Source of the DNA: an uncultured Candidatus Saccharibacteria bacterium | GTDB lineage: Bacteria; Patescibacteriota; Andersenbacteria; UBA10190 | Direction of reading: 5' to 3' | Assembly (NCBI GenBank): GCA_964371255.1 | Contig: CAYJKV010000002.1 | Location: 130,553 to 194,552 of the forward strand | Length of the DNA stretch: 64,000 nucleotides | In this document: piece by piece, positions 25,622-53,554 of the stretch | Numbering within the stretch: the first letter of the stretch is position 1 | Layout: each line of letters starts with the position of its first letter | Notes under the pieces: generated by a model | Databases searched by the model: none | Told to the model about the DNA's origin: nothing | What the model saw: the letters and a program-made list of their open reading frames with translations, nothing else | Program-made: the position numbers and the translations under genes

Positions 25622-26578
25622 TTACACTCTTTGCTTTACCCCGGCCACCTTCTGCACGTTAGCCACATACCACTCATGTGTCTCTTCCAACCCCCGTTGC
25701 AAAGTATATTCATGCTGATAACCCAGCTCCCTTAGTCTCGATACATCCAATCGGCGCAGGGGCATCCCATCAGGCTTAGTGCTGTCGAGAACAATATCTC
25801 CTGTATATCCCACCACCGTCTTGATTATCTTCACCAAATCCAAAATATTAATGTCTTCTCCTGTTCCGACATTAATAATTTCCGGACTGTCATACTTTTC
25901 CATCAGTAATAACAAAGCCCGCGCTAAATCATCCACAAACATAAATTCGCGCCTCGGTTTGCCTGAACCCCAAACTTTTACAAACGGCTGATTCGTGTCT
26001 CTCGCCACCACCAGCTTGTGTAATAACGCCGGCAAAACATGGGCGTAATTATTGTTAAAAGTATCACCGGGACCATATAAATTGGTCGGCATAGCTGAAA
26101 TAAAGTTATCCCCGTACTGGCGATGATAAGCTTGGCAAAGCTTGATCGCGGCAATTTTTGCAATGGCATATGCTTCGTTCGTTGGCTCCAGCTTGCCTGT
26201 CATAAAATACTCTTCTTTTATCGGCTGCTGGCTTTCTTTGGGATAAATGCAGGCGCTGCCTAAGTTCAATAACTTTTCTACTTTATATTCATGAGCGGCA
26301 TGGATAATATTCGTCGCGATTTGCAAATTTTGGTACAAGAAATCAACCGGGTGCGTATCATTATCCAGTATTCCGCCTACTCTGGCCGCAGCGATAATTA
26401 CAAATCGCGGCTTCTGCTGCGCAAACCACTCGTCCACCTCTGTTCTATCCGTTAAATCAAGTTTTTCCCTTGTTTGATACAGCAGATTAGTATATCCCTT
26501 CTGTCTCAGCAATCTAACAACCGCTGATCCCACTAGTCCGGTATGTCCCGCTATATATATTTTATCATCTGCTTTCAT
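25622..26578 (-). CDS. fcl: GDP-L-fucose synthase (GDP-4-keto-6-deoxy-D-mannose 3,5-epimerase/4-reductase)
   Basis: Near full-length collinearity with the Fcl/GMER family: IYIAGHTGLVGSA, LGSACIYPK, YAIAKIAAIKLCQAY, VGTGEDI. Confidence 0.8.
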   Translation of the reverse strand: MKADDKIYIAGHTGLVGSAVVRLLRQKGYTNLLYQTREKLDLTDRTEVDEWFAQQKPRFVIIAAARVGGILDNDTHPVDFLYQNLQIATNIIHAAHEYKVEKLLNLGSACIYPKESQQPIKEEYFMTGKLEPTNEAYAIAKIAAIKLCQAYHRQYGDNFISAMPTNLYGPGDTFNNNYAHVLPALLHKLVVARDTNQPFVKVWGSGKPRREFMFVDDLARALLLLMEKYDSPEIINVGTGEDINILDLVKIIKTVVGYTGDIVLDSTKPDGMPLRRLDVSRLRELGYQHEYTLQRGLEETHEWYVANVQKVAGVKQRV

Positions 26579-34242: not shown

Positions 34243-35400
34243 TCAATACGTAATCATTTTTTGCTGTTTTATCTCTACTTTCTTTAGGATCGCCATGATT
34301 TTTTTGGCAGTTTCTCCGTTGCCGTATAAAAATGATCTCTCATACTTACCGTGCCTCACCTGTTTTCTTATCGCTTGTACAATTTTCCTTTCATCAAATA
34401 ACACGTTCATCACATTTTTTCCCATTAAACGGCCATGTTGTCTGGTACCGACATTAACGGCCGGCACACCCAACCAGCCGCTTTCTTTTATGCCGACTGA
34501 CGAATTGCCGATCACTGCCTGAGCTTGGTTTAGAACATTCGCGAAATGCTCCGGTTTCAAATATCGAATAAATCTGATTTGATAGGCATCATCATGTTCA
34601 ATCTGCCATTCCCTGATCCGTTTGGCGATCGCGTCAGACCCCGCACCTAAATTCGGCCAAATCCATACGGCTTGCATTTTTAAACTATGTATCGCCGTCA
34701 ACAAACATTCGGCCTGTTGCCTCGCCAGATTAGCCTCCGTCGTGACTGGATTCAGCATCACCACTGCGTAAGGCTGTCCCAGATCTAATTTTGCCCCCGT
34801 CCCGTGCTTGTTAATCGTGGCATCAGGCACATGCTTCAGAAACTTAATTTGTCGGAGAAAATCCACATCTAGGCTGCCCACATTCCATATTCGATCCTTT
34901 CTCTCTCCCAGTCTAATTAATCTGGTTTTTGCCTGTTCATTGGTGACAAAATGCCCATGGGCTAGTTTTGTAATAGCGTGCCGGACACTCTCGTCAATTG
35001 ATCCACTGACATCCCCGCCTTCTAAATGAATTAAAGTTTTATTCAAATAAGCCGCCGCCGCGGCTATGGGCAGCACTTCAAACCGATCACCCCTTACAAT
35101 CACTACGTCTGATTCTAAGTTCTCCATCCCAGTCGCAAACTCCAGCATGCCCAGGGCGGCTGTTTTAGCCATTCCGAGGTGCTCGCCTCCTTCAATCGCT
35201 GTTGGTATTTTAAGATCAGGTTCAAACCCATGCGCCCTCAACTCGGCCACGACATTGCCATAACGATATGTCAACGCGCCGCCCCCCACAATTATCTGCA
35301 GCCTAAACCTCGACGATCGTTTGATCTCTTTTAATAAAGTCACAAGTCTACTAAGATGAGCCTTGTCAGTGATCACTACACAGATGTTTCTTTTATGCAT
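34243..35400 (-). CDS. neuC: UDP-N-acetylglucosamine 2-epimerase (hydrolysing), NeuC/LegG family
   Basis: VIVRGDRFEVLPIAAAAAYLNKTLIHLEGGDVSGSIDESVRHAITKLAHGHF. The ATG at 35400 is preferred over the TTG at 35403. Confidence 0.75.
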   Translation of the reverse strand: MHKRNICVVITDKAHLSRLVTLLKEIKRSSRFRLQIIVGGGALTYRYGNVVAELRAHGFEPDLKIPTAIEGGEHLGMAKTAALGMLEFATGMENLESDVVIVRGDRFEVLPIAAAAAYLNKTLIHLEGGDVSGSIDESVRHAITKLAHGHFVTNEQAKTRLIRLGERKDRIWNVGSLDVDFLRQIKFLKHVPDATINKHGTGAKLDLGQPYAVVMLNPVTTEANLARQQAECLLTAIHSLKMQAVWIWPNLGAGSDAIAKRIREWQIEHDDAYQIRFIRYLKPEHFANVLNQAQAVIGNSSVGIKESGWLGVPAVNVGTRQHGRLMGKNVMNVLFDERKIVQAIRKQVRHGKYERSFLYGNGETAKKIMAILKKVEIKQQKMITY

Positions 35401-35409
35401 CAATTTAAT

Positions 35410-36948
35410 ATGGCGACAAATTCCAAACCAATCAACCTAATCTTCTGCGCCCAAGGATCCGCCCTTAAGATCTTTGATAATTTGCTGCCGCCGCTTCGTC
35501 GGTCGCTATCCCTAGGCCACGTTGGTCTTTATGTGGCCGATCAAGTTTTCTATGACCATTATTTGTCCCGCGCTAATAATTTCTCTGCCCATCCTATTCA
35601 GTGGCTCAAGGAATGGGAACTAAATCAAAGCGCCCGCCGCACACCGCTCAACCTGGAGCAGTTAACTGCCTGGGAAAAACTTTACGGCCAGCCAAATTTC
35701 TGGCCCGCGCTCATCGCCGATCGCCGCCTCTTCATGGGCCCATTAATCAAATACAAACAAGATTATCGCCCGCGCCTGTCTTACACCGCGATGCTGCGTC
35801 GGTTGCAAGTTTCCATTGAGCAGATCGAACGACATATCGGCCGTGTCAAACCCGATGCCATCATCGGTTTTAATATGGTCACCCTCGACGAATTTATATT
35901 CTACTTAATTGCCAGGCAAAAACGTATACCGTATTGGCAAATTAAAAATGCCAAGGTTAATAATCTTATTACACTTTTCCCGGACCCGCTGCGGCTGTCC
36001 GACTTTTTCTCTCAACTTGCTGCCACTGCCCCATCTCCTGCTGTCTTGAACCAGGCACGCGATTACCTGCGACGCGCCCAAGCTAAGAACAGCACTTATG
36101 AAGGACATATTATCCTTAAACCACCCACTCTCTCTTCCCTCATCACTCCAGCTCTATTGTATAAACTAACCAAATCAAGCGCTTTTTCTCTGCTCAAAAC
36201 CTTTCGCTATCCGGCTGACAACCAATCGGCTGGCCTGTCCGCTGTCTGGCAATTCAACGTGGTCAAACCGATCAACGCGCTCAATCATCATCGATATTTA
36301 TCCCATCGTTATTTACCGCCCAGTCAGCTGTCCAGTACCCCCTACGTATTTTTTCCTCTTCATACCGAGCCAGAAATAGCCTTATCTATCTACGGCCGCT
36401 ATCACCAAAATCAGATAGAAGTTATCAGAAATGTCGCGCAAAGCCTGCCGGTCACTTGGTCGGTAGTGGTTAAGGACCACCCGCGCTCCCTGGGGTTCCG
36501 TAAACTGCAATACTACAAAAAACTGCTGCAAATACCCAATGTTAAACTGGTTAATCCATACCTACCATCATGGGATATTATTGAGTACGCCCAGGCCGTC
36601 GTCACTATCTCCAGCTGGGTTGGCTTTGAAGCTGTTGTTTCTAAAAAACCAGTCGTGACGATGGGTGAATGCACTTATAATTGCCTGCCTGACTGCATGG
36701 TGACAAAAAATACGTCTTATCAGCAATTGTCGTCCGACATTGATCATGCCATCCGCCATTACAGCTATGACGAAAAAGCTTTATTAGATCATATCGCCCA
36801 AGTCATTAGTCAATCTTTTCCTATTAATATGTATAGTGACGTGCTCGCCAAGCCTAACCGCCATTCCTCGCCCGCTGCCACTTCTTCGTCTCAACTATGG
36901 TCTGACTTTGCTAACTACCTCATAACCGCCGCGCACCTTCACGAATGA
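35410..36948 (+). CDS. Capsule_synth-family (KpsS/KpsC-like, GT107-type) glycosyltransferase
   Basis: FFPLHTEPEIALSIYGRYHQNQIEVIRNVAQSLPVTWSVVVKDHP...SSWVGFEAVVSKKPVVTMG fits the KpsS/KpsC family core. Start is at 35395 or 35410, divergent from neuC. Confidence 0.55.
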   Translation: MATNSKPINLIFCAQGSALKIFDNLLPPLRRSLSLGHVGLYVADQVFYDHYLSRANNFSAHPIQWLKEWELNQSARRTPLNLEQLTAWEKLYGQPNFWPALIADRRLFMGPLIKYKQDYRPRLSYTAMLRRLQVSIEQIERHIGRVKPDAIIGFNMVTLDEFIFYLIARQKRIPYWQIKNAKVNNLITLFPDPLRLSDFFSQLAATAPSPAVLNQARDYLRRAQAKNSTYEGHIILKPPTLSSLITPALLYKLTKSSAFSLLKTFRYPADNQSAGLSAVWQFNVVKPINALNHHRYLSHRYLPPSQLSSTPYVFFPLHTEPEIALSIYGRYHQNQIEVIRNVAQSLPVTWSVVVKDHPRSLGFRKLQYYKKLLQIPNVKLVNPYLPSWDIIEYAQAVVTISSWVGFEAVVSKKPVVTMGECTYNCLPDCMVTKNTSYQQLSSDIDHAIRHYSYDEKALLDHIAQVISQSFPINMYSDVLAKPNRHSSPAATSSSQLWSDFANYLITAAHLHE

Positions 36949-37955
36949 TCATTTTCCTCCCTCAAAAGATTAAATCCACCGGGGGATCCTCCACTTTTGC
37001 GCTTAAATTGCAGCGCGGACTGCGCCTTCAAGGGCATCAGGTCGTGTTCCAATTTATCTCACATTTTGATTTTCTTTTAGTCAACGCTGTCTGTCCCTTG
37101 CGCTACTTACTGTGGGCTAAACTAACCCATCGTTCGATCATCCAGCGCCTTGACGGTGTTTACTACCCTATGTCCGTGGCCCATTATCGATATTGGTTTT
37201 ATAATTTGCCGCTGCAGATCATTCTTCACTTCTTTGCTGACGCCGTCATATACCAAAGCCAATATTCGAAGGATTGTTGTGATAAATTTTTAGGCGCAAA
37301 CCGTTATATTCCTCATTACCTGATCTATAACGGAGTGGACACCGCTCTTTTTTCACCGCATGGTCAATCTAAGTCATTACGCGACTTCCCTGGCCAGCCC
37401 TTACTGATTACCGCTTCTCGTTTTCGTCGCGCTGATCAAATTCTTCCCCTATTGGCAGCTTTTACTCTCTATAAAAAACAATGGCAGCCAGCCGCCAAGC
37501 TGATCGTTATTGGCGACATCTCTCGTCATTTGACGAAATTACTCCGGCGTGACCGAATGGATCCTGCCATCCACATGTTGGGCCCCATCGCCAATGACGA
37601 ATTGCCCAATTTTCTGCGTGCCTCTGATATTTTCTTGTTTACTCACCTCAACCCTCCTTGCCCTAACAATATTATCGAAGCTATGGCCTGCGGTTTGCCG
37701 ATCTGTGGGGTCTCTGATGGTGCCATGGTAGAATTGACCTCACCGGGCTTAAACAGCGAGCTTATTGCCGCGCCCGATACCGGTTTTTATCATCCCCGCC
37801 AGCTTGATCTTCAAGCCTTCTCTGCTAATCTTAATAAAATCATGACCCATCAGAAAAGCTATGCCTCTCATAGCCGGCGGCTCGCCTCGCTCCGGTTTTC
37901 CTTGCCGGATATGATTGCCAACTATCTCACCATCTTCAATAATTTAACCGGCTGA
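36945..37955 (+). CDS. Glycosyltransferase, GT-B/GT4-like
   Basis: ITASRFRRADQILPLL...FLFTHLNPPCPNNIIEAMACGLPICGVSDGAMVEL. Confidence 0.6.
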   Translation: MIIFLPQKIKSTGGSSTFALKLQRGLRLQGHQVVFQFISHFDFLLVNAVCPLRYLLWAKLTHRSIIQRLDGVYYPMSVAHYRYWFYNLPLQIILHFFADAVIYQSQYSKDCCDKFLGANRYIPHYLIYNGVDTALFSPHGQSKSLRDFPGQPLLITASRFRRADQILPLLAAFTLYKKQWQPAAKLIVIGDISRHLTKLLRRDRMDPAIHMLGPIANDELPNFLRASDIFLFTHLNPPCPNNIIEAMACGLPICGVSDGAMVELTSPGLNSELIAAPDTGFYHPRQLDLQAFSANLNKIMTHQKSYASHSRRLASLRFSLPDMIANYLTIFNNLTG

Positions 37956-37971
37956 TCTTTTCTCCTCTTTC

Positions 37972-38712
37972 ATGTCTAATATCTTTTCCAATAATTTTCT
38001 GGTCAACCGCCCTATCGAGTTGGCGATGCAAGCATATGCCAGCCTATTTTCACCCGACCAGCAAGTCCTAGATCTTGGTTGCGGTTTCATGCCATATAAA
38101 AAGTATTTCTCGTGCCGCTATGTCGGTGCCGATCCTTTAACTACTGTCCGGCCCGATGTCATCTGCAGTGCCTGGCGGGTACCTTATCCGGATCAATCGT
38201 TTGATGGCCTGATCCTTAACCAATCCCTCGAGCACATACGTTACCCAGCCGCTACAGTCAAGGAAGTGTATCGTTTACTCAAACCGGGTGGCCGGCTGAT
38301 CGTTACTACTCCCCAAACAATGAAAAACCATAGCGTGGCCATTGCTGCGGCCGACGCACCTTTGCATAACTTTGATCATGACTCGCTGCCCTATTGGCAA
38401 AACGATTTTTGGCGCTTCACAAAATACGGTCTCATCGCCCTCTTCCATCAGTTTACCATCCTTGAGGTTCGAGAAACTTCCGGTTATATTGGCTCAATTT
38501 TTCAGCTTTTTAACTATTTTGTCGCATCGGCTACGAAGCGGCACCGTCTGCTCGCGCCGGTCTACTTCGTCAATAATCTGGCTGGCCTGACTTGTGATCT
38601 GCTTGCCCGTTCCTTGATCTCTCTAGACCTGCCGGTCACCCGTAAATTCAATCACTATATTTATTCTTCACTCACCATTAATTTAATAATGCTGGCTCAA
38701 AAACCACGATAA
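37972..38712 (+). CDS. Class-I SAM-dependent methyltransferase
   Basis: VLDLGCGFMPY...LILNQSLEHI...LKPGGRLIVTTP. Confidence 0.65.
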   Translation: MSNIFSNNFLVNRPIELAMQAYASLFSPDQQVLDLGCGFMPYKKYFSCRYVGADPLTTVRPDVICSAWRVPYPDQSFDGLILNQSLEHIRYPAATVKEVYRLLKPGGRLIVTTPQTMKNHSVAIAAADAPLHNFDHDSLPYWQNDFWRFTKYGLIALFHQFTILEVRETSGYIGSIFQLFNYFVASATKRHRLLAPVYFVNNLAGLTCDLLARSLISLDLPVTRKFNHYIYSSLTINLIMLAQKPR

Positions 38713-38716
38713 TTAT

Positions 38717-39481
38717 ATGTCCTCATTACCACGCTCTGTTGCGTTCACATTACTTGATTCATTACGACGCTCTTTCCTTCGCCCATTTATCCTTCGGATT
38801 TTTTGCCGTTTACACAATTCTTCCTATCACTGGTTCTCTTTTTTTGCCGCCGGTATCGGCCCACACCCCAAACATGCCATTACTAATTATCATCAGTTTT
38901 TTATTAACAACATTACAGCCACCGATTGCGTGATTGATTTAGGTTGCGGCCATGGTGAGCTTGCCTATGATCTGGCCCGTCACGGCCGGCTGGTCACCGG
39001 CATCGACTCTAATATTTCCTCTATTGCAGAGGCTCAGCAGCATTACCAGCGTCCCAATCTCAGCTTCATTGTTGGCGATATCGCCGCCCTTCGAGCAATG
39101 GAACATTACGACGTCGCGATACTTTCTAATGTCTTAGAGCATATCGAACATCGGGTGGAGTTATTAGAGGCCATTCAACATTTTGCTGATAAAATCCTTA
39201 TTCGCGTTCCCCTGCTTACCCGCGATTGGATTACTGCCTATAAACAGCAACATGGTCTCGAGTATCGTCTGGATGACACACATTTTATTGAGTATTCCGC
39301 CGATTCGTTCCGTTCAGAGACAACAGCCGCCGGACTAAATATTTCTGCTTGGCACGCTGCCTTTGGCGAACTTTATGCCGTCTGCCAACCGCTTACGCCA
39401 TCTCGATCGGTTAATCGCGTATCTAACCAGCCCCCTCCGCCGGTGCCGCTCGCCATCAATCACCAACCGTTGCCAGGCTAA
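38717..39481 (+). CDS. Class-I SAM-dependent methyltransferase
   Basis: VIDLGCGHGELAYDLARHGRLVTGIDSN...VAILSNVLEHIEH. Confidence 0.65.
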   Translation: MSSLPRSVAFTLLDSLRRSFLRPFILRIFCRLHNSSYHWFSFFAAGIGPHPKHAITNYHQFFINNITATDCVIDLGCGHGELAYDLARHGRLVTGIDSNISSIAEAQQHYQRPNLSFIVGDIAALRAMEHYDVAILSNVLEHIEHRVELLEAIQHFADKILIRVPLLTRDWITAYKQQHGLEYRLDDTHFIEYSADSFRSETTAAGLNISAWHAAFGELYAVCQPLTPSRSVNRVSNQPPPPVPLAINHQPLPG

Positions 39482-39490
39482 TCCATCCCG

Positions 39491-40474
39491 ATGCGTCTAA
39501 ACGCAAAAATCTTCGTTGCGGGACATACCGGGCTGGTCGGCTCAGCCCTCATTCGCGCGCTGGATAAACAGGGCTATCGCAATCTCATCCTGAAAACGAA
39601 GGCCCAGCTCGATTTAACCGATTCATTATCTACCACCTCATTTCTTTTGCAGGAAAAACCTGATTTTGTCTTCGTCTGTGCGGCCCGTGTCGGTGGCATT
39701 ATGGAAAACAAAACTTATCCGGCCCAATTCATTTATGATAATTTACGCATTGCCACTAACATCATCCACGGCTCCTATCAAGCCAAAGTCGCAAAGCTGC
39801 TCTATCTGGGAAGCTCTTGCATTTACCCTCGCCAAAGTCCGCAGCCGATGCATGAACAATATTTTATGACTGGACCGCTGGAGCCAACCAATGAATCCTA
39901 TGCCATTTCAAAAATTGCCGGCATTAAAATGTGCCAAGCCTATAATCAGCAGTACGGCACTAATTTTATCTGCGTGATGCCGACCAATATTTATGGTCCG
40001 CATGATAATTTTAATCTGGCCAGCTCGCATGTTTTGCCCGCTTTACTACGTAAATTCATTGAAGCCACTATTAATAATTACCCCACTGTCACCGTTTGGG
40101 GCACTGGACAGGCGCGCCGCGAATTCATTTTTGTTGATGACATAGCTGAAGCGCTCATCTTTATGATGAAAAATTATAATAGCAACGAAATCATTAATAT
40201 TGGCACCGGCGAAGATATTAGCATTGCCAATTTAGCGCACTTGATTAAGTCTATTGTCGGTTACTCCGGTCAAATTATTTTTGACTCCTCCAAGCCCAAC
40301 GGGATGCCCAGAAAACGCCTAGACGTCTCGCGTCTCCACCAACTCGGCTTCACTCATCGAGTTAGTTTATCGGACGGTATTAAAATAACTCATGACTGGT
40401 ACTTAACCCAATTACCGTCCGGCCTGCCCGCCATCTCCCAAAGACGAACCCATGTCCGATCAGCCTCAGCTTAA
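39491..40474 (+). CDS. GDP-L-fucose synthase family (Fcl/GMER) paralog; a ColC-type GDP-colitose synthase is possible
   Basis: Near full-length collinearity with Fcl: KIFVAGHTGLVGSA, YLGSSCIYPR, YAISKIAGIKMCQAY, MPTNIYGPHDNF, IGTGEDIS. Confidence 0.75.
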   Translation: MRLNAKIFVAGHTGLVGSALIRALDKQGYRNLILKTKAQLDLTDSLSTTSFLLQEKPDFVFVCAARVGGIMENKTYPAQFIYDNLRIATNIIHGSYQAKVAKLLYLGSSCIYPRQSPQPMHEQYFMTGPLEPTNESYAISKIAGIKMCQAYNQQYGTNFICVMPTNIYGPHDNFNLASSHVLPALLRKFIEATINNYPTVTVWGTGQARREFIFVDDIAEALIFMMKNYNSNEIINIGTGEDISIANLAHLIKSIVGYSGQIIFDSSKPNGMPRKRLDVSRLHQLGFTHRVSLSDGIKITHDWYLTQLPSGLPAISQRRTHVRSASA

Positions 40475-41495
40475 AATAGTCATTAACACTCACTACGAGT
40501 CGGCCGGTACCAGGGTCTGCGTGGATGATTTATCGCCCCGCTTAACCCAAGCCGGACATCTCGTTGTTCATAATGACTGGGACCATTATCAGCGTTACCA
40601 ACTGGCAATCTTTATGTCCCCGGACGCGGCTATCCAACAGGCGAAGCAACAAAATCAAACCATTAAAACTTGTATTATGAACCCGATGACGGACTACCCG
40701 TCTCTTCAACGCAATGCCCGATCCACTGACGCACTCATTGTCGGCTCACTGGAACAGCGCGATGCCCAACTCAAATATAATTCTAACGTCTTTATTTATT
40801 ACATGTTTCCTGACATCCAGCCCATGTTCAAAAAACATGCTGCCTCCCAACCCACCATCATCGGTTATCACGGCAATAAAGAACATCTATTTAATTTTTC
40901 TCCTCACATTAATGCGGCGCTTGATCGCCTCGCTGCCGAATATCCGGTTGAATTGTGGTTAATGTATAACATCACTAAACTCGGCCTCGTCACCACCCGT
41001 CTCCCTCGCTTGATCAAAACTCGCCACATTCAATGGTCTCCGGCCAATTACAGCCAGATACTTTCCCGGTGCGATATCGGTCTGGTAAATAATATAATTC
41101 CTACTCCCCGCGATTTCCTTCATGTTGTTAATCAGCCCCTGACCCGTTACTTTAACCTCAATTTGCGTCCCTATCGGGCTCACGATACGCAAGTCAGATT
41201 TAAATATTCGACCAACCCTGGGCGCGTCTATGTTTTTAGTCAGCTTGGTATCCCCGTCATCTCCGACTTTGCTCCCTCAATGAGCCAGGTCATTCGGGAT
41301 GATTATAGCGGTTTAATCGTCAATTCTTCTACCGGCTGGTATTGGGCTATGAAAAAATTATTACTTGATCCGCCCCTGCGCCAGTTTTATAGCGACAATC
41401 TGCGTCACACAATTGACACTACCTATGCCATCGACGGGAACTTCCGTAAACTCAATTCTTTCTTAATTAATCTTTGCCTGCCCTCGCCGTCCTAG
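40452..41495 (+). CDS. Hypothetical protein; divergent GT-B-like C-terminal half
   Basis: VYVFSQLGIPVISDFAPSMSQVIRDDYSGLIVNSSTGWYWAMKKLLLDPPLRQ resembles a GT-B C-terminal donor-binding region. 23-nt overlap with the upstream gene. Confidence 0.35.
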   Translation: MSDQPQLKIVINTHYESAGTRVCVDDLSPRLTQAGHLVVHNDWDHYQRYQLAIFMSPDAAIQQAKQQNQTIKTCIMNPMTDYPSLQRNARSTDALIVGSLEQRDAQLKYNSNVFIYYMFPDIQPMFKKHAASQPTIIGYHGNKEHLFNFSPHINAALDRLAAEYPVELWLMYNITKLGLVTTRLPRLIKTRHIQWSPANYSQILSRCDIGLVNNIIPTPRDFLHVVNQPLTRYFNLNLRPYRAHDTQVRFKYSTNPGRVYVFSQLGIPVISDFAPSMSQVIRDDYSGLIVNSSTGWYWAMKKLLLDPPLRQFYSDNLRHTIDTTYAIDGNFRKLNSFLINLCLPSPS

Positions 41496-41561
41496 TCTTT
41501 ATCACAGATGCATCTTGCCGTTTCCCTTGGGACATCCTCAACAGTTGTGTAAAATATATCG

Positions 41562-42764
41562 ATGATTAAGCTCGTCCCTGGACTTTTCCACAACGAACAA
41601 CAAACCAAACAAGATTTGTGTGATTTTATCATGTCCACGAACCAGCTGAGCATCGGGCAGCAATGCCAAAATTTTGAGCAGGAGTTTGCCCAGTGGCAGG
41701 GGCGTGAGCACTGCGTCCTCTTCAGTAGCGGCAGTTCTGCTAACCTGGCCCTGATCCAATCATTGCTTAACCTTCAATTATTGCTGCCTGATCAATCCGT
41801 CGCCTTTTCTGCACTGACCTGGGCAACTAATGTCATGCCGCTTATGCAACTGGGGTTAAAGCCAGTCCCCGTCGATGTCGAGCTCTCCACGCTCAATGTC
41901 TCCAGCCAAACCTTTTGTGCCGCCCTCGACGACAACCCATCTATTAAAATGTTGTTCCTTACTAACCTGCTCGGATTTTGCGGTGATCTTGAACAAATTC
42001 AGCGCGTCTGCGCTGAACGAAACATTCTCCTTATTGAAGACAACTGTGAATCGTTAGGTACGGAATATCTCGGTCGGAAACTTGGTAATTGGAGCTTAGC
42101 CAGCACTTTTTCCTTTTTTGTGGGCCATCATATGTCGACTATTGAGGGTGGCGCCGTTTGCACTGATGACCCAGCTCTTAATCGCATGCTCCGCTTGGTC
42201 CGTGCCCACGGCTGGGATCGCAATCTATCCGACGCCGACAAGACAGCCATTCGTCAGGAATTTAATGTTAATGACACTTTCTTTGCTAATTTTACTTTTT
42301 ACACTCTGGGGTACAACCTTCGCCCCACGGAAATCACCGGTTTTCTAGGTTCTAATCAGCTTCGTTATCTCCCAGAGACCATCCGGCTCCGCCATCACCA
42401 CTGGCAAATGTTTAACGCCGATCTTTCACGTAACCCGGATTTTATTCACCAATCCACTGACCACCTCGATTTAATCTCTAATTACGCTGTACCCATTATC
42501 TGCCGCACCCCCGATATTGCCGAGCGTTATATCAGCAGCTTTAAGGCCGCCAATGTGGAAATACGTCCAATTCTCGGCGGCTCGATCCCCGAACAGCCAT
42601 TTTACCGCCAGGCCTATGGTCGATCCAAAAGCTATAAGAATGCCAGCATCATTGATCATCAAGGTTTCTATTTTGGCAACAACCCTGGCCTGACCAGCGA
42701 TCAAATGCATTTATTGCGCCATCTGTGCCTTGGCCAAACAGTAGCCGTCGAGCAGCGAGCTTAA
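41562..42764 (+). CDS. DegT/DnrJ/EryC1-fold PMP-dependent sugar 3-dehydratase (ColD/E1-like) rather than an aminotransferase
   Basis: DegT-family blocks (SGSSANLALIQ, IEDNCESLG). The Schiff-base lysine position reads FSFFVGHHMSTIEGG, with His in place of Lys as in ColD and E1. Confidence 0.6.
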   Translation: MIKLVPGLFHNEQQTKQDLCDFIMSTNQLSIGQQCQNFEQEFAQWQGREHCVLFSSGSSANLALIQSLLNLQLLLPDQSVAFSALTWATNVMPLMQLGLKPVPVDVELSTLNVSSQTFCAALDDNPSIKMLFLTNLLGFCGDLEQIQRVCAERNILLIEDNCESLGTEYLGRKLGNWSLASTFSFFVGHHMSTIEGGAVCTDDPALNRMLRLVRAHGWDRNLSDADKTAIRQEFNVNDTFFANFTFYTLGYNLRPTEITGFLGSNQLRYLPETIRLRHHHWQMFNADLSRNPDFIHQSTDHLDLISNYAVPIICRTPDIAERYISSFKAANVEIRPILGGSIPEQPFYRQAYGRSKSYKNASIIDHQGFYFGNNPGLTSDQMHLLRHLCLGQTVAVEQRA

Positions 42765-42804
42765 TTATATTAATTGATTTTTAACCTTTACGAATCACAT
42801 TCTT

Positions 42805-43548
42805 ATGTCAAGCACCTTGTCTTCCTTTGCCCGCACTATTCATAGCCAGCATGGCGAAGAAGGCATTATCAGTGAAATTATTAAGCGTTTACAGTTGTCG
42901 CCTGATTGGTATGTAGATATCGGTGCGTGGGATGGCATACATCTCAGCAATGCTTACTTTCTCTTGGACCGTGGTTGGCAAGGCATCGGCCTGGAGGGGG
43001 ATCCAGACAAATACGAAGATCTAAAAACCACTTGCCTGAAGCACCAGGGCAAGCTTCATCCTCTCCTGGCTCAGGTCCAATCTGCGGGGCCTTATGAATT
43101 AACAAACATACTCAGCAAGACCTCTCTCCCTTTTGATTTTGGCATTTTGAATATCGATATTGATTCCCATGATTGGTGGATCTGGCATAATTTAGCCGAC
43201 TATTATCGTCCCAAGCTTGTCATCATTGAAATTAACAGCACCATTCCGGTTGGTATAACTTATGTCCAGCCTGCCGATGCGTCCGTCCCCGTCAGTGGAG
43301 CAAGTTTTACCTCTGCTCTCCAACTCGGTCAGGGCAAAGGTTATCAGTTAGTCGCCCACACCGGCAATCTAATCTTTGTTAGAAATGATCTTGTCCCAAA
43401 ACTTCATTTATCTCCAACGGAGCTTGCTAATCCTGATGCCATGTTTAACAACGAGTGGTTAATCAGAAAATACGTTAACAAACAGAATCTCTTCCAGGCT
43501 TCAAAAATCTTCATCCGCGACCGTTTCCGGAAATATATTATCAGTTAA
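42805..43548 (+). CDS. FkbM-like methyltransferase (weak)
   Basis: YVDIGAWDGIHLSNAYFLLDRGWQGIGLEGDPDKYEDL loosely follows D.GAN.G...G.EP.P. Confidence 0.35.
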   Translation: MSSTLSSFARTIHSQHGEEGIISEIIKRLQLSPDWYVDIGAWDGIHLSNAYFLLDRGWQGIGLEGDPDKYEDLKTTCLKHQGKLHPLLAQVQSAGPYELTNILSKTSLPFDFGILNIDIDSHDWWIWHNLADYYRPKLVIIEINSTIPVGITYVQPADASVPVSGASFTSALQLGQGKGYQLVAHTGNLIFVRNDLVPKLHLSPTELANPDAMFNNEWLIRKYVNKQNLFQASKIFIRDRFRKYIIS

Positions 43549-43661
43549 TTTGTTCTATCGTTTGCTCTCCACTAATTAACATAACACTTTGACCTGGCCT
43601 TAAACGTGTCCGTATTTTTCATAAATTCTCGCACCTTTCGTGTAAATAATCTATCACCCTC

Positions 43662-44834
43662 ATGCCAATTCAGCTTTCTCTTGCCACTATTTACAACCAC
43701 TTGTTATTAGCCGCTGCAAAAAAAACTGTCATCTGCAACATTCATCGGTCTGGTCATTTTCGCCGGGGTCATGCCTTGCTTTATTATAAAACAGATTCTC
43801 TTACTCCCGGTTATTGGCAACAGTATCAGCATACCAATAATTGGGAAATTACCGAGGAAGTAAGGATACTTAACAAACTAGGCTTCTGGGTAGACGCCAT
43901 TGACCGCGGCGCCGCAACCAACTGGCTGCCGGCAGACAAATATCAACTTTTTATCGGTATTGGCATTGACGGATCCGGCCACCACTACCTGAGATTAGCC
44001 CAGCACGTTCCCTCAGCTCTAAAAGTTCTGTATGCCGCCAGCTCTAATCCTGACCAGCGCAACGCCTTCATTAATCAGCGCTATGCTGAATTTCAGCGTC
44101 GTACCGGATGTACTCTGCCCCTCTTTCGTACCGTCGAAGAGGTCGATACCACACAGACCGCACAAATCACTGATCAAATTATCTGCGTAGGCAATCACGT
44201 AACCAACGCTACTTTTAGCAGTTACCATCGACCCATCCATAAAATCTATCTATCCACATCTCCTAAACTATATTTGGACAAAGCGGCCTATACTCACAAG
44301 CAGGCGACTAATTTTTTATTTTTTGCTGGTGCCGGCAACATTCTCAAAGGTCTCGATCTCCTGTTAGAAACCTTTGCTCAGCTGCCAAACCTTAATCTCT
44401 ATGTCTGCACGACCATAGAAAAAGACTTTCTGCATCATTACCAAAAACTCATTGACCATTCTCCCAACATCCATATCGAAAATTTCATTCGCATCAATAG
44501 TCCTCGGTTCAATCATTTAACGAGTGTCTGCGCTTACGTAATTTTACCCTCCTCCACGGAAGGATGTGCTACCTCTGTTACTTCCTGTATGCGCCGCGGC
44601 CTGATACCGGTGGTCACCCGTCAAAGCGGCATAGATGTCGAGCCATATGGTTTTTATATTGATGACATCTCTATTCCTGGCCTCTCTGCTTTGGTTTCTC
44701 GTCTTTCCGTCACGCCTGTTTCTAGTCTGCGCGATCACGTCATCTCCGCCTTTCAAGCCTCTTTCCAGTACACCCAACAATCATTTTCCCACAGCTTTAC
44801 CCAAGCGCTTGTAAATATTCTTCAAACAGCCTGA
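43662..44834 (+). CDS. Glycosyltransferase, GT-B/GT4-like (divergent)
   Basis: FLFFAGAGNILKGLDLL and YVILPSSTEGCATSVTSCMRRGLIPVVTRQSGIDVEP. Confidence 0.5.
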   Translation: MPIQLSLATIYNHLLLAAAKKTVICNIHRSGHFRRGHALLYYKTDSLTPGYWQQYQHTNNWEITEEVRILNKLGFWVDAIDRGAATNWLPADKYQLFIGIGIDGSGHHYLRLAQHVPSALKVLYAASSNPDQRNAFINQRYAEFQRRTGCTLPLFRTVEEVDTTQTAQITDQIICVGNHVTNATFSSYHRPIHKIYLSTSPKLYLDKAAYTHKQATNFLFFAGAGNILKGLDLLLETFAQLPNLNLYVCTTIEKDFLHHYQKLIDHSPNIHIENFIRINSPRFNHLTSVCAYVILPSSTEGCATSVTSCMRRGLIPVVTRQSGIDVEPYGFYIDDISIPGLSALVSRLSVTPVSSLRDHVISAFQASFQYTQQSFSHSFTQALVNILQTA

Positions 44835-44901
44835 TTGTCTCCCTGCCCTTTCCGGCCCGTGTCCCGTTGTCGCCTGCCTGGCAATTGCGTACTATATTAT
44901 C

Positions 44902-45882
44902 ATGTCTCATTTCTTGGTTACCGGCGGTGCCGGCTTTATCGGCACGAATATAGTCTTTTATTTATTATCCAAAGGCCATCAGGTCACCATTTTAGACAAC
45001 TTATCAACCGGTCATATTGAGAATTTGTCTTCAGTCATGCACCGACTGACCTTTGTTCAGGGTGATATTTGCGACCTGGCTACGCTCCACCAAGTGATGC
45101 GCGGCGTTGATTATGTGCTGCATCAGGCCGCCTGGCGGGCCGTGGAAAAATCGATCGATCATCCGATTGAAGCTCATCACAATAATGTCACCGGCACTCT
45201 TAATGTCTTAATGGCTGCACGTGATGCCCATGTTAAACGGGTCGTCTTGGCCTCTTCCTCAGCCATCTACGGTCAAAACAAAGCAAGAATTAATCAGGAG
45301 GATGATCTGCCAAAACCAGCCTCCCCCTATGCCGTTGCCAAATTAGCTGGCGAGCAATACGCGTCCGTGTTTTATCATGAATTTAAGCTCCCCACAATTT
45401 CCTTGCGGTACTTCAACGCTTATGGGCCGTTCTCACCGGCAGAATCTGCATATTCCAACGTTATCCCAATTTTCGTCCAGTGTTTAACTAACGGCCTTCG
45501 CCCGACTGTTCATTGGCACGGCCAGCAAAGTAAGGATTTCGTCTATGTAGAAGATATTGCCCGCGCTAATTATTTAGCAGCCACCAAGCCAAACCTGCCC
45601 TTCGGTACCGCCTATAATATCGGCTCTGGTCAAACTACGTCCATTAACGATCTGCTATCAGCCTTGCAAACGCTCCTCCACACTAACCTTAAACCACTTC
45701 GCCAGCCAAAACGTCCTGGTGATGTTTTAGCCACATATGCCAACACTCTCAAAGCCAGTTTGGACCTTTCTTTTACCACTCATGTTTCCTTGCAGCAGGG
45801 TCTGCAGCAATTCCTCAACTGGTATTTTTCCACCGCTACAGCCAAATCGTCCCCCCTCATCCGGCAGGCTGCATCCCATTGA
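44902..45882 (+). CDS. NDP-sugar 4-epimerase (GalE/WbpP-like extended SDR)
   Basis: FLVTGGAGFIGTNIV...LDNLSTGHIENL; YAVAKLAGEQ (YxxxK); ASSSAIYG. Confidence 0.65.
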   Translation: MSHFLVTGGAGFIGTNIVFYLLSKGHQVTILDNLSTGHIENLSSVMHRLTFVQGDICDLATLHQVMRGVDYVLHQAAWRAVEKSIDHPIEAHHNNVTGTLNVLMAARDAHVKRVVLASSSAIYGQNKARINQEDDLPKPASPYAVAKLAGEQYASVFYHEFKLPTISLRYFNAYGPFSPAESAYSNVIPIFVQCLTNGLRPTVHWHGQQSKDFVYVEDIARANYLAATKPNLPFGTAYNIGSGQTTSINDLLSALQTLLHTNLKPLRQPKRPGDVLATYANTLKASLDLSFTTHVSLQQGLQQFLNWYFSTATAKSSPLIRQAASH

Positions 45883-48110: not shown

Positions 48111-49514
48111 CTAATTCTCAACTTCTAAAGTCGGGAACCTTGCCTTTAAAAAAGCTATGATCTTTTTATTACCATTCGGCTGCTCCGTCATTTGCTGCAA
48201 TTGTTTTGTTACCTGGTCTTGACTATTTTTTCTCGTTTGTCCATTCTGCAATCTCCAGATATTTGGCAAACTTGTCTTCCTGACCGACTTTTTTTCTGCT
48301 TGCTCAAACAGCTCTTCGAACATTTTTTCCCCTGGTCGGCACCCTACCACCTTGATGCGAATGTCCTTATCGGGCATCAGGTTATGGCCTCGTACGACAC
48401 ATTGGGCGACTTCATACACCGATATCAGATCCCCCATGTTCAAGACATATATCGCACCCTGGGCCATCCTGGTCGCACTCATGATAACCAGTTGCGCCGC
48501 CTCCCGTATCGACATAAAATATCGTTTCATTCTCTTGTCCGTAATAGTCACTTCCCGCCGTTGCGTCACTTGTCTGTCAAACATCGGCAGCACCGACCCT
48601 TGCGAATTGATCACGTTTCCAAAACGGACAATACTAAATATTGTTTTTTTTGTGCTTAACCCCTGCACGCACTGTTCCGCGATCTTTTTTGTCGCACCCA
48701 TCACGCTGGTCGGATTTACTGCTTTATCTGTCGACACTAATACGAACCTTTCCACCCCATATTTCACGGCCGCCTCGGCAACGTTGAGAGTCCCCAGCAC
48801 GTTGGTCTTGACCGCTTCCCCCGCACAGTCTTCCATTAAATGAACGTGTTTGTAAGCCGCCGCGTGAAAAACTATATTCGGCCTGGCCGCTTTAACTACT
48901 TCATCAGTCCTCACCCGATCCACTACACTCCCAATCATGATCATGAATCTGGCTTTGCTGACTTTGCCTTCCTTCAATTCCTGAGTCAACGCATAAACTA
49001 ATCCTTCCGAGTTATCCAGCACTACTACCTTCCTAACCTTCAGCTCAAGCAGCTGCCTCACAATTTCGGACCCAATAGACCCTGCTCCGCCCGTCACCAG
49101 TACCACCTTGTTTTTGTAATATTTTTCCAGTTTATTTATATTCCTCCGAACAGGCGCACGTCCCAGCCAGTCCTCGCCGGTCAAATCACGCACAAACTCG
49201 TACTGCACATCATTGTGCCTGATCACTCTTTGTTCCCTGGGTACAATTCGAATTGGTACCCGATTTTTGATGTTATTGAGCAGTATCCGCCTGATCAGCG
49301 ACCCATCGGCTGAGGGAATTGCAATCACTACCTCGTCCACCCTGTATCGGTCCAAGACTTCTTCTAAATCGTCAATCTTACCCAATATTTTTGTTCCATT
49401 CCTTTTCATGTCGTCAATGAATCCCGCCACTGCCCTGTCCGGATAATGGTGCTCAATATCCTGCTCTAATAATCTTCCGGCTATTCCGGCCCCAACTATT
49501 ACGATTTTCTTCAT
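48111..49514 (-). CDS. CapD/PglF/WbpM-like NDP-sugar 4,6-dehydratase/epimerase (Polysacc_synt_2), soluble form
   Basis: KVVLVTGGAGSIGSEIVRQL...VVLDNSE. N-terminal Rossmann-like domain MKKIVIVGAGIAG. No TM domain. 467 aa. Confidence 0.7.
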   Translation of the reverse strand: MKKIVIVGAGIAGRLLEQDIEHHYPDRAVAGFIDDMKRNGTKILGKIDDLEEVLDRYRVDEVVIAIPSADGSLIRRILLNNIKNRVPIRIVPREQRVIRHNDVQYEFVRDLTGEDWLGRAPVRRNINKLEKYYKNKVVLVTGGAGSIGSEIVRQLLELKVRKVVVLDNSEGLVYALTQELKEGKVSKARFMIMIGSVVDRVRTDEVVKAARPNIVFHAAAYKHVHLMEDCAGEAVKTNVLGTLNVAEAAVKYGVERFVLVSTDKAVNPTSVMGATKKIAEQCVQGLSTKKTIFSIVRFGNVINSQGSVLPMFDRQVTQRREVTITDKRMKRYFMSIREAAQLVIMSATRMAQGAIYVLNMGDLISVYEVAQCVVRGHNLMPDKDIRIKVVGCRPGEKMFEELFEQAEKKSVRKTSLPNIWRLQNGQTRKNSQDQVTKQLQQMTEQPNGNKKIIAFLKARFPTLEVEN

Positions 49515-51016: not shown

Positions 51017-51392
51017 CTACTTGCCGCGCCTGGGGGCTTATTTGACCCTGCTCCTTTTCAGCGGCTTACTGCTGCCTATCCCCAAAGCCCTGCTTGCGGG
51101 TTTACTGCTGGTGAGTCTGGGCTTATTCTTGATCCAGCTTGCCTTTCGCCGCCCCGCGATTGTTGTAATATTCCTTGTCTTTTTTGCCATTCCCGTTTTG
51201 GCTTTTCAGATTCCGCCCCTTGTCTCTTCGCGTTTTAGCCCACTCACACAACTTGCTTTAACAATTCTGCTCTGGGGCTGTCTTCTTTCACTGCTTGTTT
51301 CTATTGCGACTTGGCTTGCCAATCGTAGTCAATTTCATTTAGGTCGATCCGGTCCATCTCCGTCGGATCATGTTCCAGGCTCGCTAGATTAG
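51009..51392 (+). CDS. Small hydrophobic ORF (about 127 aa); coding status uncertain
   Basis: ATGATTAA start/stop overlap with the upstream gene. Four predicted TM helices. The 3' end overlaps the convergent cupin gene by about 90 nt. Confidence 0.25.
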   Translation: MINYLPRLGAYLTLLLFSGLLLPIPKALLAGLLLVSLGLFLIQLAFRRPAIVVIFLVFFAIPVLAFQIPPLVSSRFSPLTQLALTILLWGCLLSLLVSIATWLANRSQFHLGRSGPSPSDHVPGSLD

Positions 51393-51744
51393 CCACCACC
51401 GACAATTTGTGACTGATGCCTATCATACCGTTAGTCACACCCTTTGGGATGTGCAACAAGCAGTAGTTATCTTCACCAAGCCAATATTCCTCGACTTGAC
51501 CTTTAGTTGCGGACTGGTCCCGTTCATCGACCAAGACGACTTTTACCGCTCCCACGATACAGGCATAGTTCAATGCCATTTGGCGGTGTCTGTGCCAGGC
51601 TTTAATGACACCCTGGTAAACTGACGTAAAATATATTTCGCCGAATTGATCAAAAGCCGGATCGGATTTTTTTAGCATATGCCAAACTACGCCGCGATCG
51701 TCCGGGATTTTCTTTAACAAGCGGCAGTTCACTCCCTCAATCAT
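51301..51744 (-). CDS. WxcM/FdtA-like cupin (NDP-4-keto-6-deoxyhexose 3,4-ketoisomerase family)
   Basis: 147 aa. DDRGVVWHMLKK...FGEIYFTSVYQGVIKAWHRHRQM...VVLVDER matches the FdtA/WxcM cupin core. Confidence 0.55.
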   Translation of the reverse strand: MIEGVNCRLLKKIPDDRGVVWHMLKKSDPAFDQFGEIYFTSVYQGVIKAWHRHRQMALNYACIVGAVKVVLVDERDQSATKGQVEEYWLGEDNYCLLHIPKGVTNGMIGISHKLSVVANLASLEHDPTEMDRIDLNEIDYDWQAKSQ

Positions 51745-52814
51745 ACTGTCTCCTGTATACTCTCCTTAATCCGTAACTCCTCCGACAATAAACCCGCCTG
51801 TCTCATCGCCTGATATCTTTTCAGCGTATAATACCCATTAAACATCATATCCTCTTCCTGCCATTCAACTTTATCAAACGCACCCAGCAAACCGCGCACA
51901 CCGTCAGAAATTAATTCGCGCGCTTTCCAGCCCAGCCTCTCAATCTTATCGAAACTTACCCGGTAGGTCCGTTCATCTTTTGTTTTTTCCGGGTTAATAA
52001 ATACCTGACTGCCCACAATCTCCTTCTTAACCAGCCTCGCGATGTCTTTGACCTGATGATTATTAGCCGCTGTCCCGATATTAAACGCCTCCCCGCTGAC
52101 CTGTTCGCCGGCTGCCTCCAGCAGAAATATAAACGCTCGGGCACAGTCATTCACCGCCAGGCTCGGACGCCAGGGAGTGCCATCGCTCAATACCTTAATC
52201 CGTCCATAAGTATATCCGTTGGCCGTTAAATCGTTAACCACCAGATCCAGCCTTAGCCGCGGCGAATAACCAAAGACGGTTGCGTTGCGCAAGATTACTG
52301 GCGTAAATTCACTGCCGCTCATTTTCCTCAGCTCATCTTCCATCATCACCTTTGACTTGGCATAGGCTGTCTTCGGGTCTAAAGTATCATTCTCGTTCAT
52401 CAATCGCTGCCCGCTCACCCCGTATGTGCTGCACGAAGATGAAAATAAAAAACGATTAACGCCGGCCCTTTTAGCAAGTTCGGCCAACCTGACACCCGCT
52501 CGATAATTTATCTCGTACGTCAGCTGTTCATCGAGCTCACCTAACGGATCATTCGATAGTCCTGCTAAGTGGATCACTGCGTCGCAACCCACTATGTCAT
52601 CCATCTCAATGTCCCGAATGTCCTTTTTCTTTTGCACCGTCGCCGGTACCCGTGGCATCATTTGCACATCCTCAAATATGCCGGCATCAATCCCCAGCAC
52701 TCTGTACCCAGCCTCAACCAATTGTTGCGTTAATACCGAACCAATATAACCCTGGTTACCTGTCACTGCTATCTTTTTCTTCCCTCTTCGCTCCATGTTT
52801 TCTTTTTCAACCAT
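51741..52814 (-). CDS. NAD-dependent epimerase/dehydratase-family SDR; activity uncertain
   Basis: KKIAVTGNQGYIGSVL; YAKSKVMMED (YxxxK). The TDE 4,6-dehydratase signature is not evident (SSCSTYG). 4-nt overlap with the cupin gene. Confidence 0.6.
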   Translation of the reverse strand: MVEKENMERRGKKKIAVTGNQGYIGSVLTQQLVEAGYRVLGIDAGIFEDVQMMPRVPATVQKKKDIRDIEMDDIVGCDAVIHLAGLSNDPLGELDEQLTYEINYRAGVRLAELAKRAGVNRFLFSSSCSTYGVSGQRLMNENDTLDPKTAYAKSKVMMEDELRKMSGSEFTPVILRNATVFGYSPRLRLDLVVNDLTANGYTYGRIKVLSDGTPWRPSLAVNDCARAFIFLLEAAGEQVSGEAFNIGTAANNHQVKDIARLVKKEIVGSQVFINPEKTKDERTYRVSFDKIERLGWKARELISDGVRGLLGAFDKVEWQEEDMMFNGYYTLKRYQAMRQAGLLSEELRIKESIQETV

Positions 52815-53554
52815 AGATTATTTAAGTATTGCACATCTTTAACCGTATTCATTGCGTGCCAGAATCCATCGTGTCGATACTGACCGAGCTTCTTCTTATT
52901 GGCCATCCTCGCTAATCCGTCTTCCAGCGCCTCGCCCTTCCGTAAATATCGCAGTGCTTCTTTCTCAAACACCATGAAGCCGCCATTAATATATTCCTTT
53001 ACCTTGGGCTTTTCCGCAAACTTTTTTATTACATCGCGTTTATCCGCCCATATCTCACCAAAATGTGATGAGGGGTGCGCCACTGTAATGGTTGCGATTA
53101 TGCCTAATCTGTCCTTCTGCCTCTTATGAAAGCGGATTAGTTTAGCTATGTTCACATCACTCACGTCATCGCCGTAGGAAACCATGAACTGTCTATCACT
53201 GACATACTGCGCGGCTACCAAGACTCTCTCCGCCGTATCCGTCGTCTCGCCTGTTTCAATCATGGCTACCCGATAATCAAGCGGCAATCTATCTGTTAAT
53301 GGGGTTATGGCTCCCGAAGCTAAGTCTACTTCCACGTCATTGATCGTCTTGGTTATGTTGATAAAATAATCACGGATCATGTCACCACGGTAGCCTAAAC
53401 ACAACATGAACTCTTTTTGCCCATAACCGGCATATAAATTCATGATATGGATTAATATCGGCCACTCACCCACTTTTACCATGGCCTTAGGTTTGAATTC
53501 AGTCTCTTCATTCATTCTCCATCCGCGGCCACCGCATAAGATAATGGTTTTCAT
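52769..53554 (-). CDS. rfbF: Glucose-1-phosphate cytidylyltransferase
   Basis: MKTIILCGGRGWRMNEETEFKPKAMVKVGEWPILIHIMNLYAGYGQKEFMLCLGYRGDMIRDYF closely tracks RfbF/DdhA. 261 aa. Confidence 0.75.
   Translation of the reverse strand: MKTIILCGGRGWRMNEETEFKPKAMVKVGEWPILIHIMNLYAGYGQKEFMLCLGYRGDMIRDYFINITKTINDVEVDLASGAITPLTDRLPLDYRVAMIETGETTDTAERVLVAAQYVSDRQFMVSYGDDVSDVNIAKLIRFHKRQKDRLGIIATITVAHPSSHFGEIWADKRDVIKKFAEKPKVKEYINGGFMVFEKEALRYLRKGEALEDGLARMANKKKLGQYRHDGFWHAMNTVKDVQYLNNLWLKKKTWSEEGRKR

Follow-up and report, generated by a model that had tools for sequence, protein, structure and literature searches.

We analysed a 64,000-nucleotide stretch of contig CAYJKV010000002.1 (hereafter the window; assembly GCA_964371255.1, an uncultured member of the Patescibacteria) and found that the open reading frame (ORF) at 41562..42764 on the plus strand, named here ORF 41562, in all likelihood encodes a ColD-type sugar 3-dehydratase, i.e. 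a predicted pyridoxamine 5'-phosphate (PMP)-dependent enzyme acting on a nucleoside diphosphate (NDP)-4-keto sugar. Judged by sequence, it is a remote relative of ColD that belongs to a large, uncharacterised clade of Patescibacteria proteins, and it probably serves to make a 3,6-dideoxy sugar such as colitose. We regard this as a sound annotation, which adds a distant member to the ColD family from an unusual host, and not as a new mechanism.

A histidine at the Schiff-base position

The 400-residue product of ORF 41562 has the DegT fold, with the Pfam profile DegT_DnrJ_EryC1 (PF01041) matching residues 13-382 at 202.9 bits. A preliminary description of this DNA, made from its letters, had claimed that a histidine replaces the lysine which binds pyridoxal 5'-phosphate (PLP) in aminotransferases of this fold, and the alignments bear the claim out. 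The segment SFFVGHHMSTIEG, translated from nucleotides 42111-42149, contains His189 and His190 (codons at 42126..42131, plus strand), of which His189 (42126-42128) takes the place of the Schiff-base lysine. His189 pairs with His188 of ColD in phmmer alignments against the PDB, where the deposited mutants 3b8x (H188N, reading S-N-H) and 2r0t (H188K, reading S-K-H) identify His188 as the first histidine of the pair, and His220 of E1, the CDP-ascarylose-type enzyme, aligns to the same residue. A MAFFT alignment was made of 106 DegT-cluster proteins that come from 80 related GTDB loci; its His189 column holds histidine in 88 of the 106 proteins and lysine in the other 18, which comprise every ordinary aminotransferase. 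The histidine is thus at the Schiff-base position, and no lysine lies close to it, the sole lysine within residues 170-210 being K173. Since His189 is invariant among the members of the ORF 41562 clade (79/79), the substitution is not a chance event. The four best PDB matches are all ColD entries aligned over their full length (best 2gms, E=9e-57), ahead of E1 (E=2e-38) and of aminotransferases (1e-23 or weaker).

ColD type versus E1 type

Two mechanistic types of 3-dehydratase, E1/SpnQ and ColD, share the histidine substitution and are separated by the presence or absence of a cluster of four cysteines (PMC8987622). The preliminary description had proposed a check for the [2Fe-2S] cysteines of E1, and its outcome favours ColD: C193, C251, C253 and C261 of E1 correspond to C162, R220, L222 and I230 of ORF 41562, so that three of the four are missing, and the only one retained, C162, is also present in ColD. 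As histidine replaces lysine and the Fe-S cysteine cluster is lacking, we infer ColD chemistry by the criteria of PMC8987622; an E1 identity is ruled out by the absence of Cys251, Cys253 and Cys261. All four Fe-S cysteines are present in six E1-like proteins from loci of the Candidate Phyla Radiation (CPR) in the same alignment. At six loci (L015, L052, L060, L066, L071 and L075) an E1-like dehydratase with the complete set of cysteines was observed within 10 kb of a ColD-like one.

The ColD residues G56, S57, W88, D159, E162, S183, H188, R219, N248 and R331 are identical in ORF 41562 and invariant throughout the clade (79/79). Apart from H188, we take all of them to be residues of the cofactor and phosphate site. 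At the positions of W88, E162 and R219, E1 carries F, D and C instead. In a neighbour-joining tree E. coli ColD is sister to the ORF 41562 clade, which means that the clade is not nested with characterised members, and the E1-like proteins fall outside. The best NCBIfam family for ORF 41562 is RfbH, at 190.6 bits far under the cutoff of 423, and no E3-type ferredoxin or FNR domain was found among window ORFs of at least 150 residues.

Taken together, ORF 41562 has in common with E1 (DdhC/AscC/RfbH, the CDP-6-deoxy-L-threo-D-glycero-4-hexulose 3-dehydrase) the histidine substitution, the presumed PMP-dependent C3 deoxygenation and RfbH as top NCBIfam family, but it is about 40 residues shorter, lacks the C-X57-C-X1-C-X7-C site, has no E3 gene in the window and sits in a separate clade of the tree. 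With ColD (WbdK, the GDP-4-keto-6-deoxy-D-mannose 3-dehydratase of E. coli O55 and Y. pseudotuberculosis) and the GDP-heptose C3-dehydratases of C. jejuni HS:5/HS:11 it shares the DegT fold, the histidine at the Schiff-base position, the lack of Fe-S cysteines and a length of about 390-400 residues. The PMP-site residues G, S, W, D, E, S and N of ColD are identical, and the two arginines of the HGWxRN and RP motifs are kept. A further likeness is the closeness of an Fcl-family gene to the dehydratase gene, as in E. coli O55, where colC overlaps colD. Differences exist as well: S187 of ColD is a glycine in ORF 41562, whose clade bears the signature 'VGHH', and its gene cluster has no gmd or manC, contains a partner that is Fcl-like and not ColC-like, and lies in a Patescibacteria genome. 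For the comparison, the sequence of ColD in the PDB alignment was back-translated, colD was found in 86 E. coli genomes, and the cluster of E. coli O55:H7 CB9615 was taken as reference; there colC (307 aa) overlaps colD and is accompanied by gmd, manC and fcl.

More than 7,700 database sequences match ORF 41562 at E<1e-20, most of them about 390 residues long and about 55% identical, chiefly from Patescibacteria. The closest named genome is that of Candidatus Andersenbacteria RIFCSPHIGHO2_02_FULL_46_16 (locus L007), where the dehydratase is 82% identical and the gene order matches that of positions 31395-52814 of the window. A literature search found no paper tying Patescibacteria to colitose biosynthesis or to dideoxyhexoses.

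The Fcl-like paralogs

The candidate last enzyme of the pathway is encoded two genes upstream of the dehydratase, at 39491..40474 on the plus strand (ORF 39491, 327 aa, full-length), and belongs to the GDP-L-fucose synthase (Fcl) family of epimerases/reductases. It scores 461 bits with the NCBIfam model for GDP-L-fucose synthase (NF047922), just under the cutoff of 500, and matches E. coli GMER at E=3e-107. A paralog of the same type lies at 25622..26578 on the minus strand (443 bits, likewise a near miss of the cutoff). The statement of the preliminary description that 39491 is a second full-length Fcl-like gene beside the one at 25622 is therefore correct, and the coordinates and sequence statements it gave for 41562, 39491, 25622 and 52769 all hold.

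That description had also cast ORF 39491 as ColC, the GDP-L-colitose synthase (WbdJ), a role to which the evidence lends itself only in part. ORF 39491 and ColC are alike in their short-chain dehydrogenase/reductase (SDR) family, their catalytic residues and their location in an operon with a ColD-type gene, and ORF 39491 is linked to the dehydratase both in the operon and across loci. However, the protein is nearer to E. coli Fcl (52.7% identity) than to ColC of E. coli O55 (33.4%), and some relatives with the dehydratase do without its ortholog, which is a pseudogene in L007 and absent from L095. The paralog at 25622 is 50.8% identical to E. coli Fcl, 37.8% to ColC and 56.6% to ORF 39491. 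The catalytic Ser, Cys, Tyr, Lys and His are kept in ORF 39491 and are common to Fcl, ColC and all family members found near dehydratases, so that no motif tells Fcl and ColC apart; a loss of GMER His179 in ColC was considered as a discriminator and rejected, because the alignment has all five residues in both. At 60-64% identity to Fcl of unrelated phyla (archaea, Firmicutes and others), ORF 39491 is a mainstream Fcl, which argues for a GDP-sugar substrate.

Linkage of dehydratase and Fcl-family genes among relatives

The interval 39491-42764 consists of three co-directional, tightly packed ORFs. The middle one (40452..41495, plus strand) overlaps the stop of ORF 39491 by 23 nt and encodes a conserved 347-aa protein that may be a GT-B glycosyltransferase; it has no Pfam or NCBIfam match at 1e-3 and a faint match to the C-terminal Glycos_transf_1 domain (E=0.08). 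Its orthologs occur in all loci where they were looked for (L007, L093, L095, L176, L177 and L178).

Of the 80 GTDB loci, 42 have an Fcl-family gene no more than 10 kb away from the dehydratase, and often it follows directly downstream. The window and seven further loci are syntenic, and both genes occur together in five of these eight, the window included: in L178 (Fcl ortholog of 39491 77% identical, ColD-like protein 82%), L176 (64% and 61%), L093 (63% and 62%) and L094, where the Fcl-family protein is 41% and the ColD-like protein 66% identical. L178 and L176 repeat the order Fcl, 347-aa ORF, dehydratase, L094 has the same order with a glycosyltransferase in the middle, and the pair of Fcl and 347-aa ORF is also kept in L093.

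The remaining three loci speak against a fixed partnership and against the pathway favoured below. In L007 the ColD-like protein is 82% identical and the Fcl ortholog is a remnant (8518-8877) in which residues 1-33 continue in frame into residues 222-310, the catalytic core (34-221) is deleted and two stops are present, while the flanking genes are intact. L095 contains the ColD-like gene (65%) and no Fcl ortholog. Conversely, L177 (10530-12485; ENA ERZ23498652 scaffold_1298) holds the Fcl ortholog (70%), the 347-aa ORF (64%) and an ortholog of the 247-aa ORF found downstream of the dehydratase in the window (68%), with no ColD-like gene between them. Because L177 is syntenic in spite of this, the dehydratase behaves as a cassette that is either present or absent. 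We conclude that the Fcl-type and dehydratase genes are associated but not obligately coupled. This pattern fits a reductase of the Fcl type with relaxed specificity, or the paralog at 25622, finishing the sugar, and Fcl-family C4-reductases of C. jejuni accept 3-deoxy-4-keto substrates in vitro (PMC10680097).

Predicted pathway and choice of sugar nucleotide

By analogy with ColD, the enzyme encoded by ORF 41562 would depend on PMP and need neither an Fe-S cluster nor a reductase partner. PMP would condense with the C4 keto group of an NDP-4-keto-6-deoxyhexose to give a ketimine, His189 would take the C4' proton and the 3-hydroxyl group would be expelled; hydrolysis of the enamine would then yield an NDP-4-keto-3,6-dideoxyhexose and ammonia, and L-glutamate would turn PLP back into PMP. 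The likeliest substrate would be GDP-4-keto-6-deoxy-D-mannose supplied by a Gmd from another part of the genome. The product could be converted to GDP-L-colitose, or to a close 3,6-dideoxy-L-hexose, by the Fcl-type epimerase/reductase of the same operon (39491) or by its paralog (25622), and the adjoining glycosyltransferases and methyltransferases would add the sugar to a surface glycan.

As to the nucleotide on which ORF 41562 acts, we tentatively favour, at somewhat less than an even chance, a GDP-colitose-like pathway that an enzyme of the Fcl type would complete. GDP-sugars are the substrates of all characterised ColD-type enzymes (PMC10440746, PMC10680097), and the mainstream type of ORF 39491 points the same way. 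Several observations weigh against this choice. The identity of ORF 41562 to E. coli O55 ColD is 30.6% (191 bits), compared with 62-67% among the characterised ColD-type enzymes, the C. jejuni GDP-heptose C3-dehydratases included (PMC10440746), and the transfer of a substrate by homology is consequently weak. Genes for gmd, manC, manB and CDP-glucose 4,6-dehydratase were not detected by tblastn in the window with about 9 kb of either flank (82 kb), and gmd, manC and manB are found in none of the eight syntenic loci. Over the 80 clade loci a true Gmd (TIGR01472, 496 bits) is present in 10, just 3 of which have an Fcl-family gene, compared with 14 of 14 loci with an RfbF-like gene. Clade-wide, RfbF-like and CDP-glucose-dehydratase-like genes are more frequent companions of the Fcl-family partners than Gmd is. 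ColD-like genes near a true Gmd were seen in six Saccharibacteria loci (L017, L031, L043, L046, L078 and L079), where the Gmd adjoins a distinct SDR and a Wzm/Wzt-type ABC transporter and no Fcl-family gene is present.

The preliminary description had noted that gmd and an E3-type reductase are missing from the window, as the tblastn and domain searches confirm. Its broader proposal of a 3,6-dideoxyhexose pathway holds for the 3-dehydratase, which has histidine for lysine and is presumably PMP-dependent, and falls short for the ColC role of ORF 39491. It had further pointed to an rfbF gene as an alternative CDP route, and an RfbF-like nucleotidyltransferase is indeed encoded at 52769..53554 on the minus strand (TIGR02623, 224 bits, under the cutoff of 300), but the CDP-glucose 4,6-dehydratase that such a route calls for is missing from the 82 kb.

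We consider it unlikely, on balance, that ORF 41562 acts on CDP-4-keto-6-deoxy-D-glucose, with CDP-glucose coming from this RfbF-like enzyme. Such an enzyme would open a ColD-style way to a CDP-3,6-dideoxyhexose that does without E3, e.g. to an ascarylose-like L-sugar after a 5-epimerase/4-reductase step by an Fcl-family protein. In favour of it, the island includes the RfbF-like gene, which L007 and L093 have conserved, and at least 12 GTDB genomes contain a recurrent block of an SDR, a ColD-like gene, a divergent Fcl-like gene (about 33% to Fcl), a second SDR, glycosyltransferases, an RfbF-like gene and a CDP-glucose-4,6-dehydratase-like gene (loci L016, L018, L021, L024, L037, L038, L049, L054, L063 and L086 among them); the presence of an Fcl-family gene in all RfbF-like loci agrees with this. 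No E3-like gene was seen in these blocks, although no systematic search was made. The RfbF-like proteins of the block score 266-282 bits (cutoff 300) and the CDP-glucose-4,6-dehydratase-like proteins, which carry an S-T-D-K motif, 184-203 bits (cutoff 278), so that these, like the RfbF-like protein of the window, all stay under the NCBIfam cutoffs. Moreover, no ortholog of the CDP-glucose-dehydratase-like SDR of the block is found in the window or in the syntenic relatives, and ORF 39491 is of the mainstream GDP-fucose-synthase type. Finally, the RfbF-like gene of the window is paired with a Cj1427-like SDR (51741..52814, minus strand) and an RmlC-like cupin (51301..51744, minus strand; PDB 3ejk, E=1e-24). 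In 80 metagenome loci of homologs of this SDR (L096-L175), used as a test of linkage, the nucleotidyltransferase-SDR pair is common in unrelated contigs, sometimes with the cupin, in the absence of a ColD-like gene. The CDP-glucitol pair HS5.18/HS5.17 of C. jejuni was considered as a model for the RfbF-like protein and the SDR and was discarded, since that transferase belongs to PF01128 and not to PF00483 (PMC10918830).

Improbable, in our estimate, is a UDP-4-keto-6-deoxy-N-acetylhexosamine (HexNAc) substrate, from which ORF 41562 would generate a 2-acetamido-2,3,6-trideoxyhexose. The supplier would be the PglF/CapD-like (Polysacc_synt_2) sugar 4,6-dehydratase at 48111..49514 on the minus strand (Pfam, 326.7 bits); neither the window nor the 82 kb holds another 4,6-dehydratase candidate. 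Its gene is conserved in L007, L093, L176 and L177 and lies 5-8 kb from the dehydratase in the first three. DegT enzymes usually adjoin dehydratases of the PglF/CapD type, and no lysine-type aminotransferase was found in the window. On the other hand, L177 has the PglF-like gene (68%) and no ColD-like gene, so that PglF must have a different role, only 4 of the 80 clade loci possess a PglF-like gene, and no known 3-dehydratase uses a 2-acetamido sugar (PMC8987622). Within the same population as the window, the PglF-like protein is called with 316 or 303 residues and not 467 (L005:14338-17358, L006:16550-17461), and one methyltransferase is cut to 85 residues (L005).

Still less probable would be a substrate that retains its 6-hydroxyl group, i.e. 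an NDP-4-keto sugar delivered by the Cj1427-like SDR at 51741 acting as a C4-dehydrogenase, with the 3-deoxy product being processed by the cupin as epimerase and by an Fcl-type reductase. The best PDB match of the SDR is 6vo6 (E=1e-35), which we take to be Cj1427, and the SDR is devoid of the acid/base pair of dehydratases. The trio of nucleotidyltransferase, SDR and cupin is syntenic with a ColD-like gene in L007, L093 and L131, and Cj1427 together with a ColD-type dehydratase and C4-reductases produces GDP-3-deoxy-heptoses in vitro (PMC10680097). However, among the 39 metagenome loci of at least 8 kb with homologs of the SDR, only 3-4 contain a ColD-like gene (at least 60% identity), all of them in close CPR relatives, so that the linkage looks like shared island ancestry and the association of the trio with the dehydratase is probably inherited synteny.

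That ORF 41562 is a 4-aminotransferase or an inactive relic is scarcely credible: the secondary NCBIfam matches to PseC (137 bits) and LegC (110 bits), the nonulosonic-acid genes nearby and the ability of SpnQ to transaminate when it has no reductase (PMC8987622) are outweighed by the lack of a lysine at or near the Schiff-base position, by the invariance of His189, His190, W87, E163 and R220 in the 79 clade members, indicating purifying selection on a ColD-type site, and by the intact state of the gene in 23 ENA metagenome contigs carrying the same sequence.

Organisation of the glycan island

The dehydratase gene is part of a co-directional run that spans 35356-45882, from a KpsS-like gene to an epimerase gene of the WbgU/WbpP type. 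The upstream genes of this putative operon (35356..39481, plus strand) encode a KpsS-like Capsule_synth protein, a GT1 glycosyltransferase and two class-I methyltransferases (Pfam), and their order is kept in L007, L095, L177 and L178. Directly downstream of the dehydratase, the variable 247-aa ORF (42805..43548, plus strand) has no Pfam match even at E=5 and may, from a G-x-G-like motif alone, be a methyltransferase; besides its occurrence in L177, it is absent from L007 and L178. It is followed by a GT1-like glycosyltransferase gene (43662..44834, plus strand; Pfam Glycos_transf_1, 27.8 bits), a conserved neighbour whose orthologs come after the dehydratase in L007, L008, L093, L176 and L178. 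The last gene of the run (44902..45882, plus strand) encodes an SDR resembling UDP-HexNAc 4-epimerases (PDB WbgU, E=3e-58; WbpP, E=2e-56), with an SSS..YxxxK motif of the epimerase type and no Asp/Glu pair of dehydratases. It was considered as the missing 4-ketoreductase and set aside on account of its homology to WbgU/WbpP-type 4-epimerases; nor is it a dehydratase. The SDR at 53855 has the SSSS motif of the UDP-GlcA epimerase type and is not a dehydratase either.

Within 31395-36948, divergent from the KpsS-like Capsule_synth gene, lie minus-strand genes for a NeuC-like 2-epimerase, a NeuB-like synthase, a CMP-transferase-like protein and a D-2-hydroxyacid dehydrogenase. Together they make up a nonulosonic-acid module whose conservation extends to L007, L095, L177 and L178. 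A 3-deoxy nonulosonic acid made through these NeuC/NeuB/NeuA genes is excluded on chemical grounds, since C3 of the hexose becomes C6 of the nonulosonic acid, whose oxygen closes the pyranose ring.

The window as a whole forms a glycan island, with glycosyltransferases, methyltransferases, membrane proteins of the PMT_2/YfhO type and the NeuC/NeuB/NeuA-like module. Beyond the left edge of the window the island goes on for at least 9 kb (L089), and in all it exceeds 80 kb, in what is probably a CPR genome of about 1 Mb. At least 15 glycosyltransferases and at least 7 methyltransferases were counted in it, and polysaccharide deacetylases and an M14 peptidase-like ORF were noted as well. The strand asymmetry of the window is unusually strong and uniform: GC skew is strongly negative in each 2-kb bin (-0.14 to -0.29), nearly all bins have T>A, and this is independent of the strand of the genes.

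Implications

To our knowledge, 3,6-dideoxyhexoses are surface sugars of rare occurrence and strong antigenicity, described almost exclusively from Gram-negative pathogens. Patescibacteria are episymbionts with reduced genomes, and their surface glycans are essentially unstudied. In view of the rarity of these sugars and of the little-studied glycans of episymbionts, a conserved ColD-type family in Patescibacteria is of some interest, and an island of more than 80 kb suggests a heavy investment in unusual deoxysugars, which may serve to attach to a host or to escape phages. The most interesting lead is the clade-wide association with CDP-glucose-type genes. It is doubtful, yet conceivable, that the Patescibacteria clade represents ColD-style, Fe-S-free and E3-independent 3-dehydratases working on non-GDP sugars, chiefly CDP-4-keto-6-deoxyglucose, for which the recurrent neighbours of RfbF-like and CDP-glucose-dehydratase-like type would be the source. 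If this were true, CDP-3,6-dideoxyhexoses could be reached by a second route, one that needs no reductase, and the lineage of the window, which lacks a matching 4,6-dehydratase, could use a UDP-HexNAc-derived or a 6-hydroxy 4-keto sugar and so form a deoxysugar product undescribed in nature. Only three substrate classes of 3-dehydratases have been characterised (PMC8987622), and the clade could extend the reductase-free chemistry of ColD to new nucleotide sugars.

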